Shown here in pieces: positions 63,958 through 64,000 of a stretch of DNA of 64,000 bases. Both the position numbers and the translations under genes were made by a program. How positions within the stretch are numbered: the first letter of the stretch is position 1; each line of letters opens with the position of its first letter. Source of the stretch: Escherichia coli (GTDB lineage: Bacteria > Pseudomonadota > Gammaproteobacteria > Enterobacterales > Enterobacteriaceae). The DNA is taken from the NCBI RefSeq assembly GCF_001677475.2, contig NZ_CP015229.1, one strand, 5' to 3'. Below the pieces are notes generated by a model. That model was given only the letters and a program-made list of their open reading frames with translations. It searched no databases and had not been told where the DNA came from.

Positions 63958-63992
63958 GAAAAACCCCGCCCGGTTTGCGCCGGCGGGGTTTT
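63958..63992 (-). terminator. ilvBN attenuator terminator
   Basis: On the minus strand: CCCCGCCGGCGCAAACCGGGCGGGG hairpin followed by TTTTTCGTTT, just upstream of ilvB; the ivbL leader ORF would lie beyond the window end. Confidence 0.7.
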
Positions 63993-64000
63993 GGAATCGT

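Follow-up and report, generated by a model that had tools for sequence, protein, structure and literature searches.

The ilvBN attenuator of Escherichia coli was reportedly sequenced in 1982. Nowadays this attenuator serves as an amino-acid biosensor. A review (PMC6123439), citing Friden, Newman & Freundlich 1982, places a 32-aa leader with abundant branched-chain residues ahead of ilvBN and describes the operon as controlled by attenuation. The same logic governs the ilvL-ilvGMEDA, leuL-leuABCD, trpL, hisL and thrL attenuators, in which a short ORF with tandem regulatory codons is combined with antiterminator and terminator hairpins that exclude each other, and a U-run precedes the first structural gene (PMC6123439); their sequences and regulatory codons are unlike those of ivbL. 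A GC-rich palindrome past the UAG codon of ivbL has been described as a terminator, and an ivbL-gfp fusion is repressed by added Val and Leu and unaffected by six other amino acids (PMC11187965). Term-seq has placed a transcript 3' end there (ivbL_t, T3PE-1238), with weak termination strength in a reporter assay (PMC9023263); such weakness fits a regulatory terminator and also means that termination is partial. The ilvBNC attenuator of Corynebacterium glutamicum, for which a three-hairpin model exists, likewise has a branched-chain-rich leader peptide controlling a terminator upstream of ilvB (PMC11857589). It belongs to another phylum and has an unrelated leader and a different operon, so that the likeness, drawn from its description, is one of analogy and not homology.

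The window, by which we mean the whole 64,000-nt stretch of E. coli DNA analysed here, ends within this attenuator. Its final 121 nt, comprising the hairpin, T-run, spacer and ilvB start, match E. coli K-12 MG1655 and strain CFSAN018748 at every position. The K-12 gene order ivbL-ilvB-ilvN is also the same and nothing in the element itself differs. That the hairpin next to the window edge represents the intrinsic (Rho-independent) terminator in the leader-peptide attenuator of E. coli ivbL-ilvBN is, in our view, all but certain. The first-pass annotation had proposed this assignment, and it is supported by the K-12 identity, the presence of ivbL upstream, the alternative pairing and the conservation across species. 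The element is therefore an already known one, the textbook ilvBN attenuator. It consists, together with its surroundings, of the following features:

63993..64000, minus strand: ACGAUUCC, predicted 3' half of the antiterminator's small inner hairpin (from folding the extended locus L001)
63992..63989, minus strand: A-run AAAA (sequence)
63988..63980, minus strand: terminator 5' arm CCCCGCCGG (sequence, folds)
63980..63992, minus strand: AAAA together with CCCCGCCGG, the terminator 5' arm, predicted to double as the antiterminator 3' arm (folds)
63979..63974, minus strand: terminator loop CGCAAA (folds)
63973..63964, minus strand: terminator 3' arm CCgGGCGGGG, with G63971 bulged (folds)
63963..63959, minus strand: T-run TTTTT (U-tract), proposed end of the attenuated leader transcript (sequence; Term-seq ivbL_t, T3PE-1238, PMC9023263)
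63911..63958, minus strand: spacer between attenuator and ilvB, the ilvB 5' UTR on read-through transcripts (sequence)
63922..63918, minus strand: Shine-Dalgarno AAGGA within the spacer (sequence)
62222..63910, minus strand: ilvB, acetohydroxy acid synthase I large subunit, 562 aa, the regulated gene (ORF; 99.9% DNA identity to annotated ilvB)
61928..62218, minus strand: ilvN, acetohydroxy acid synthase I small subunit, 96 aa, second gene of the operon (ORF; annotation in matching genomes)

Read directly from the minus strand, 63992..63959 is AAAA-CCCCGCCGG-CGCAAA-CCgGGCGGGG-TTTTT, and the last 90 bases of the window on this strand are ACGATTCCAAAACCCCGCCGGCGCAAACCGGGCGGGGTTTTTCGTTTAAGCACCTCCCGGAAAGTCGGCCCAGAAGAAAAGGACTGGAGC, followed by ATG. 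The GC-rich hairpin with a T-run upstream of ilvB, as originally noted, was thus confirmed by sequence, fold and statistics; the interval 63958..64000 assigned to it was accurate and its sequence corresponds to the description. Eight nucleotides of this interval (63993..64000) are part of the antiterminator inner hairpin, which is cut by the window edge; their partner in the folds of L001, GGAAC, lies past it. The end of the T-run is separated by 48 nt from the ilvB start codon, an ATG at 63910, and the ilvN ORF begins 3 nt past the ilvB ORF. An intrinsic terminator (GC-rich hairpin and U-run) thus separates the promoter from the first structural gene, and the structural genes downstream of it are ilvB and ilvN.

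Next to the operon, the window strain differs from K-12 in having an extra low-GC islet of two genes between ilvN and uhpA (window 58500-61900; 33-41% GC vs 52-59% in the flanks), which has no bearing on the attenuator. The K-12 equivalent is a 75-nt gap. The islet contains two ORFs:

60370..61677, minus strand: hypothetical protein, 435 aa
58630..60156, minus strand: hypothetical protein, 508 aa

The two proteins are mutual paralogues (26% identity over 366 aa, E = 9e-26) and had no match in Pfam-A, PADLOC, NCBIfam or PHROGs. Among 5,426 complete E. coli genomes, 1,109 have the islet, in each case chromosomally located, and its identity among them ranges from about 80% to, at best, 97.5%, vs 99.9% for the adjacent ilvB end. 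It looks like a variable, fast-diverging accessory locus. In the genome matching the window best, NZ_CP028192.1, positions 472374-490000 (roughly window 31900-49600, as expected if the two are collinear) contain a toxin-antitoxin pair of the RelE/ParE kind, iatC, an inverse autotransporter gene of 11 kb, eilA, and what is left of a type III secretion needle-tip gene interrupted by IS2.

We examined the stability of the hairpin in isolation and in its context. The isolated hairpin (41 nt) folds at -21.6 kcal/mol vs -13.5 +/- 2.7 in 200 dinucleotide shuffles (z = -2.99), only one of the 200 being as stable. A purpose-written scan, folding the 34 nt preceding each run of at least four T on both strands of the 64-kb window, ranked it first among all hairpins abutting such a run on either strand. 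No hairpin at -18 kcal/mol or better was found in ten dinucleotide-shuffled windows, and with a less strict cutoff of -14 there were 6 sites in the real window vs a mean of 2.05 in the shuffles. The hairpin might still be regarded as a chance GC-rich palindrome, or as a copy of a dispersed REP-like repeat, with no regulatory role. The region is GC-rich, the 90-nt fold including the flanks (window edge to ilvB ATG) is not significant (z = -0.65), and a simple terminator scan of 61000..64000 did not report the hairpin. This last miss arises because the bulge and loop exceed the rules of that scan, and against the flanked fold stand the significance of the hairpin alone and the shuffled windows devoid of any equally stable site. 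Dispersal is contradicted by copy number: the terminal 701 nt of the window were matched (at least 80% of length, at least 95% identity) in 5418 of 5426 complete E. coli genomes, each with ilvB annotated, and this ilvB-end locus is present in single copy (median, 1 place per genome).

The antiterminator 5' arm and the leader ORF are both situated outside the window, and the leader was taken from genomes identical over the final 121 nt of the window rather than from its own contig. The genome that matches best (NZ_CP028192.1, locus L001) carries emrD, ysdE, tisB, ivbL, ilvB and ilvN in this order, and window position 64000 corresponds to L001 2501. The annotated ivbL, b3672 in K-12, ends 15 nt and starts 114 nt past the window edge in K-12 MG1655 and CFSAN018748; it occupies L001 2387-2485, equivalent to window 64016..64114. 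Its product, MTTSMLNAKLLPTAPSAAVVVVRVVVVVGNAP*, has 32 aa, among them 9 Val and 3 Leu, and the ends of the peptide are ATGACTACTTCC...GCGCCGTAG. A short ORF with tandem Val/Leu codons is therefore found directly upstream of the terminator in the identically matching genomes. The first-pass annotation had placed the leader ORF beyond 64000, with the terminator half alone visible, and had suggested extending the sequence in search of a Val/Leu-rich leader, whose absence would speak against an attenuator. Because ivbL is annotated just past the edge in these genomes, the leader is where it was anticipated.

Further upstream, the sRNA istR (Rfam RF01400, 147.5 bits) is found at L001 2128-2257, window-equivalent roughly 64244-64373. 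In the matching genomes istR and the tisB toxin gene directly precede the ilvB promoter, so the window ends just short of a type I toxin-antitoxin locus.

The arrangement of ivbL, hairpin and ilvB could in principle also be read as two separate units: a constitutive terminator closing a small gene (ivbL or istR), with ilvB transcribed from a downstream promoter of its own. A short ORF with a strong terminator could indeed stand alone. However, istR is closed by its own terminator, whose end at L001 2257 precedes the ilvB promoter region, and the 48-nt spacer 63911..63958 showed nothing resembling a promoter. The response of the ivbL reporter to Val and Leu argues for regulated read-through instead (PMC11187965). 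Regulated read-through is also implied by a conserved antiterminator overlapping the terminator 5' arm, described below. Taken with these points, an independent unit of this kind is extremely unlikely.

Next, we asked how the leader of the ivbL-ilvBN attenuator might fold. In equilibrium folds of the whole leader the terminator was kept under every ribosome mask. The switch would therefore have to be a kinetic one and, as equilibrium folds are uninformative on such a switch, they were replaced by folds of truncated nascent transcripts, containing the RNA up to the terminator loop, lacking the 3' arm and with the ribosome-covered stretch masked. The decisive segment is GCGCCGUAGGG (L001 2477-2487), consisting of the codons for Ala31 and Pro32, the stop codon and GG. 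When the mask corresponded to a ribosome stalled at Val22 to Val26, GCGCCGUAGGG paired with CCCCGCCGGCGC (2514-2524), that is, with the terminator 5' arm, enclosing the small inner hairpin, at about -21 to -22 kcal/mol. In the model the antiterminator partners would be GCGCCGTAGGG and CCCCGCCGGCGC. With the stall mask at Val19, G-rich Val codons paired with the terminator 5' arm instead. Placing the ribosome at the stop codon (mask to 2497) removed the antiterminator pairing and left the terminator (-21.0 kcal/mol) unopposed. In these computations, then, an antiterminator using the terminator 5' arm forms or not according to ribosome position. This corresponds to the classical logic of attenuation by a leader peptide. 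The folds show that the alternative pairing exists; that it would depend on where the ribosome stands is suggested by the masks and the literature, and a response to Val and Leu by the folds and the literature.

One difference from the trp attenuator concerns the protector structure, which trp has; no trp-like protector was evident in the nascent-transcript folds of ivbL. Without any ribosome these folds still give the antiterminator, the Val run being paired with the early coding region, and because of this a protector is not definable here.

The proposed course of events in the ivbL-ilvBN attenuator is as follows. Transcription would begin past the window edge and cross the 32 codons of ivbL with their 9 Val and 3 Leu codons. 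With an ample supply of charged Val and Leu tRNAs, the ribosome would proceed to the UAG stop and cover GCGCCGUAGGG; this would leave CCCCGCCGG free for CCgGGCGGGG, and RNA polymerase would stop at the U-run 48 nt before ilvB. A ribosome stalled on the Val run would leave GCGCCGUAGGG exposed, to pair with the 5' arm before the 3' arm is made. The antiterminator so formed would prevent termination, and ilvBN would be transcribed.

In search of comparative evidence, we looked for the codon pattern of VVVVRVVVVV in one genome per GTDB species, leaving the hairpin unconstrained. Among the 120 loci returned, 37 were Enterobacterales with a leader ORF ending in ...AAVVVVRVVVVVG(N/S/I/K)AP*. Their genera include Escherichia, Citrobacter, Enterobacter, Klebsiella, Kluyvera and Cedecea as well as Serratia, Yersinia, Pectobacterium, Dickeya, Brenneria and Morganella. 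In each of the 37 an ilvB homologue starts about 100-110 nt past the leader stop codon (163 nt in Kluyvera), so that the same arrangement is found at the same position in related species. The other 83 matches to the Val run, mostly from high-GC bacteria outside Enterobacterales, had no ilvB homologue downstream and were discarded. In Kluyvera genomosp. 1 (L040) the spacer contains an extra stretch of about 60 nt between the attenuator T-run and ilvB, forming a long added hairpin (GCGAAGCGGCTCAAGCTGCAG...CTGCAACCTTGAGTGCTTAGCG), which may be an inserted small palindromic element.

An alignment of 38 Enterobacterales ilvB leaders was then inspected for both folds. The terminator forms in all 38 (mean -21.8 kcal/mol), and so does the antiterminator (mean -21.5 kcal/mol), which occupies 8 or more of the 11 nt in the 5' arm. 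Column identity is 0.957 in the hairpin, with 25 of 36 columns invariant, vs 0.725 in the downstream spacer, where none of 48 is invariant and conservation is poor except near the Shine-Dalgarno. Invariant in all 38 species are CCCCGCCGGCG of the 5' arm and GCGGGG of the 3' arm, the bulged position being G, A or absent; the TTT of the T-run does not vary across species either. The loop varies slightly (CGCCAG, CGUAAA) and the stems are constant. Paired cells make up 96.1% of the alignment for the terminator and 87.9% for the antiterminator; 10 of 13 terminator pairs show no variation, and the antiterminator core is invariant. In this alignment no pair of the terminator stem changed on both sides. 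Such covariation is missing because the stem is invariant, and the comparative support therefore consists of conservation only. Compensatory changes on both sides were found at 3 pairs of the antiterminator inner hairpin (GGAAC/GAUUCC, GAAUC/GAUUC, GGAUC/GAAUCC).

Invariance of this degree is to be expected, since one and the same segment encodes Ala-Pro-stop, pairs with the 5' arm and leaves that arm free for its 3' partner. Judging from the aligned sequences, strong purifying selection appears to act on the leader and to preserve both alternative folds. A near-invariant hairpin at the same position in 38 leaders, next to a freely varying spacer, is not what a chance palindrome or a REP-like repeat would leave behind; we rejected both on account of this positional conservation across species, and regard their probability as practically nil.

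The conservation bears equally on the possibility that the hairpin is a bidirectional terminator with the main job of stopping plus-strand antisense transcripts running from ilvB towards istR/tisB. The element is indeed flanked by an A-run and a T-run, and its plus-strand fold (-18.4 kcal/mol) is followed by TTTT. Terminator stems are commonly preceded by an A-tract, however, which simply extends the stem. No plus-strand gene or annotated transcript ends at the hairpin, and the invariant coupling of the hairpin to GCGCCGUAGGG and the leader ORF in 38 species is explained by the minus-strand attenuator only. We therefore judge a principal role in antisense termination very unlikely.

Known RNA families did not provide another name for the element. 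In Rfam scans the hairpin gave sub-threshold matches only: P6 (22 bits vs 50), STnc310 (21 vs 40), STnc180 (12-19 bits vs 50), Leu_leader (12.1 vs 50), PtaRNA1 and others. STnc180 and STnc310 were considered as counterparts of the leader and rejected, as their alignments are similar in the generic terminator stem only. Rfam release 15 holds families for the Leu, His, Thr and Trp leaders, none of which scored above threshold here, and no family for the ilvB (ivbL) leader.

Regulation of this region includes an added post-transcriptional layer. Published RNA-RNA interaction data show pairing of the sRNA GcvB with ivbL and also with the ivbL-ilvB intergenic region; GcvB raises ivbL transcript levels, and RNase E cuts in the same intergenic region, which includes window 63911..63958 (PMC9299463, PMC11347164). 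The attenuated leader transcript is about 190 nt long and ends in the invariant GC-rich hairpin and a U-tail, an end resembling the Hfq-binding 3' module of many sRNAs. By this analogy the terminated leader RNA might have a role in trans besides its role in cis, such as that of a GcvB sponge or partner. We consider such a candidate role improbable; overlapping coding, antiterminator and terminator constraints already account for the extreme conservation.

The finding itself is correct but ordinary, a regulatory element having been properly recognised from half of its sequence at a window edge. The 38-species alignment could seed an Rfam family for the ilvB leader. For the bacterium, the attenuator is a means of lowering synthesis of Val/Leu enzymes when those amino acids abound. 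Within Enterobacterales, as seen in the same alignment, the terminator, the antiterminator and the C-terminal codons of the leader are locked together and nearly invariant.
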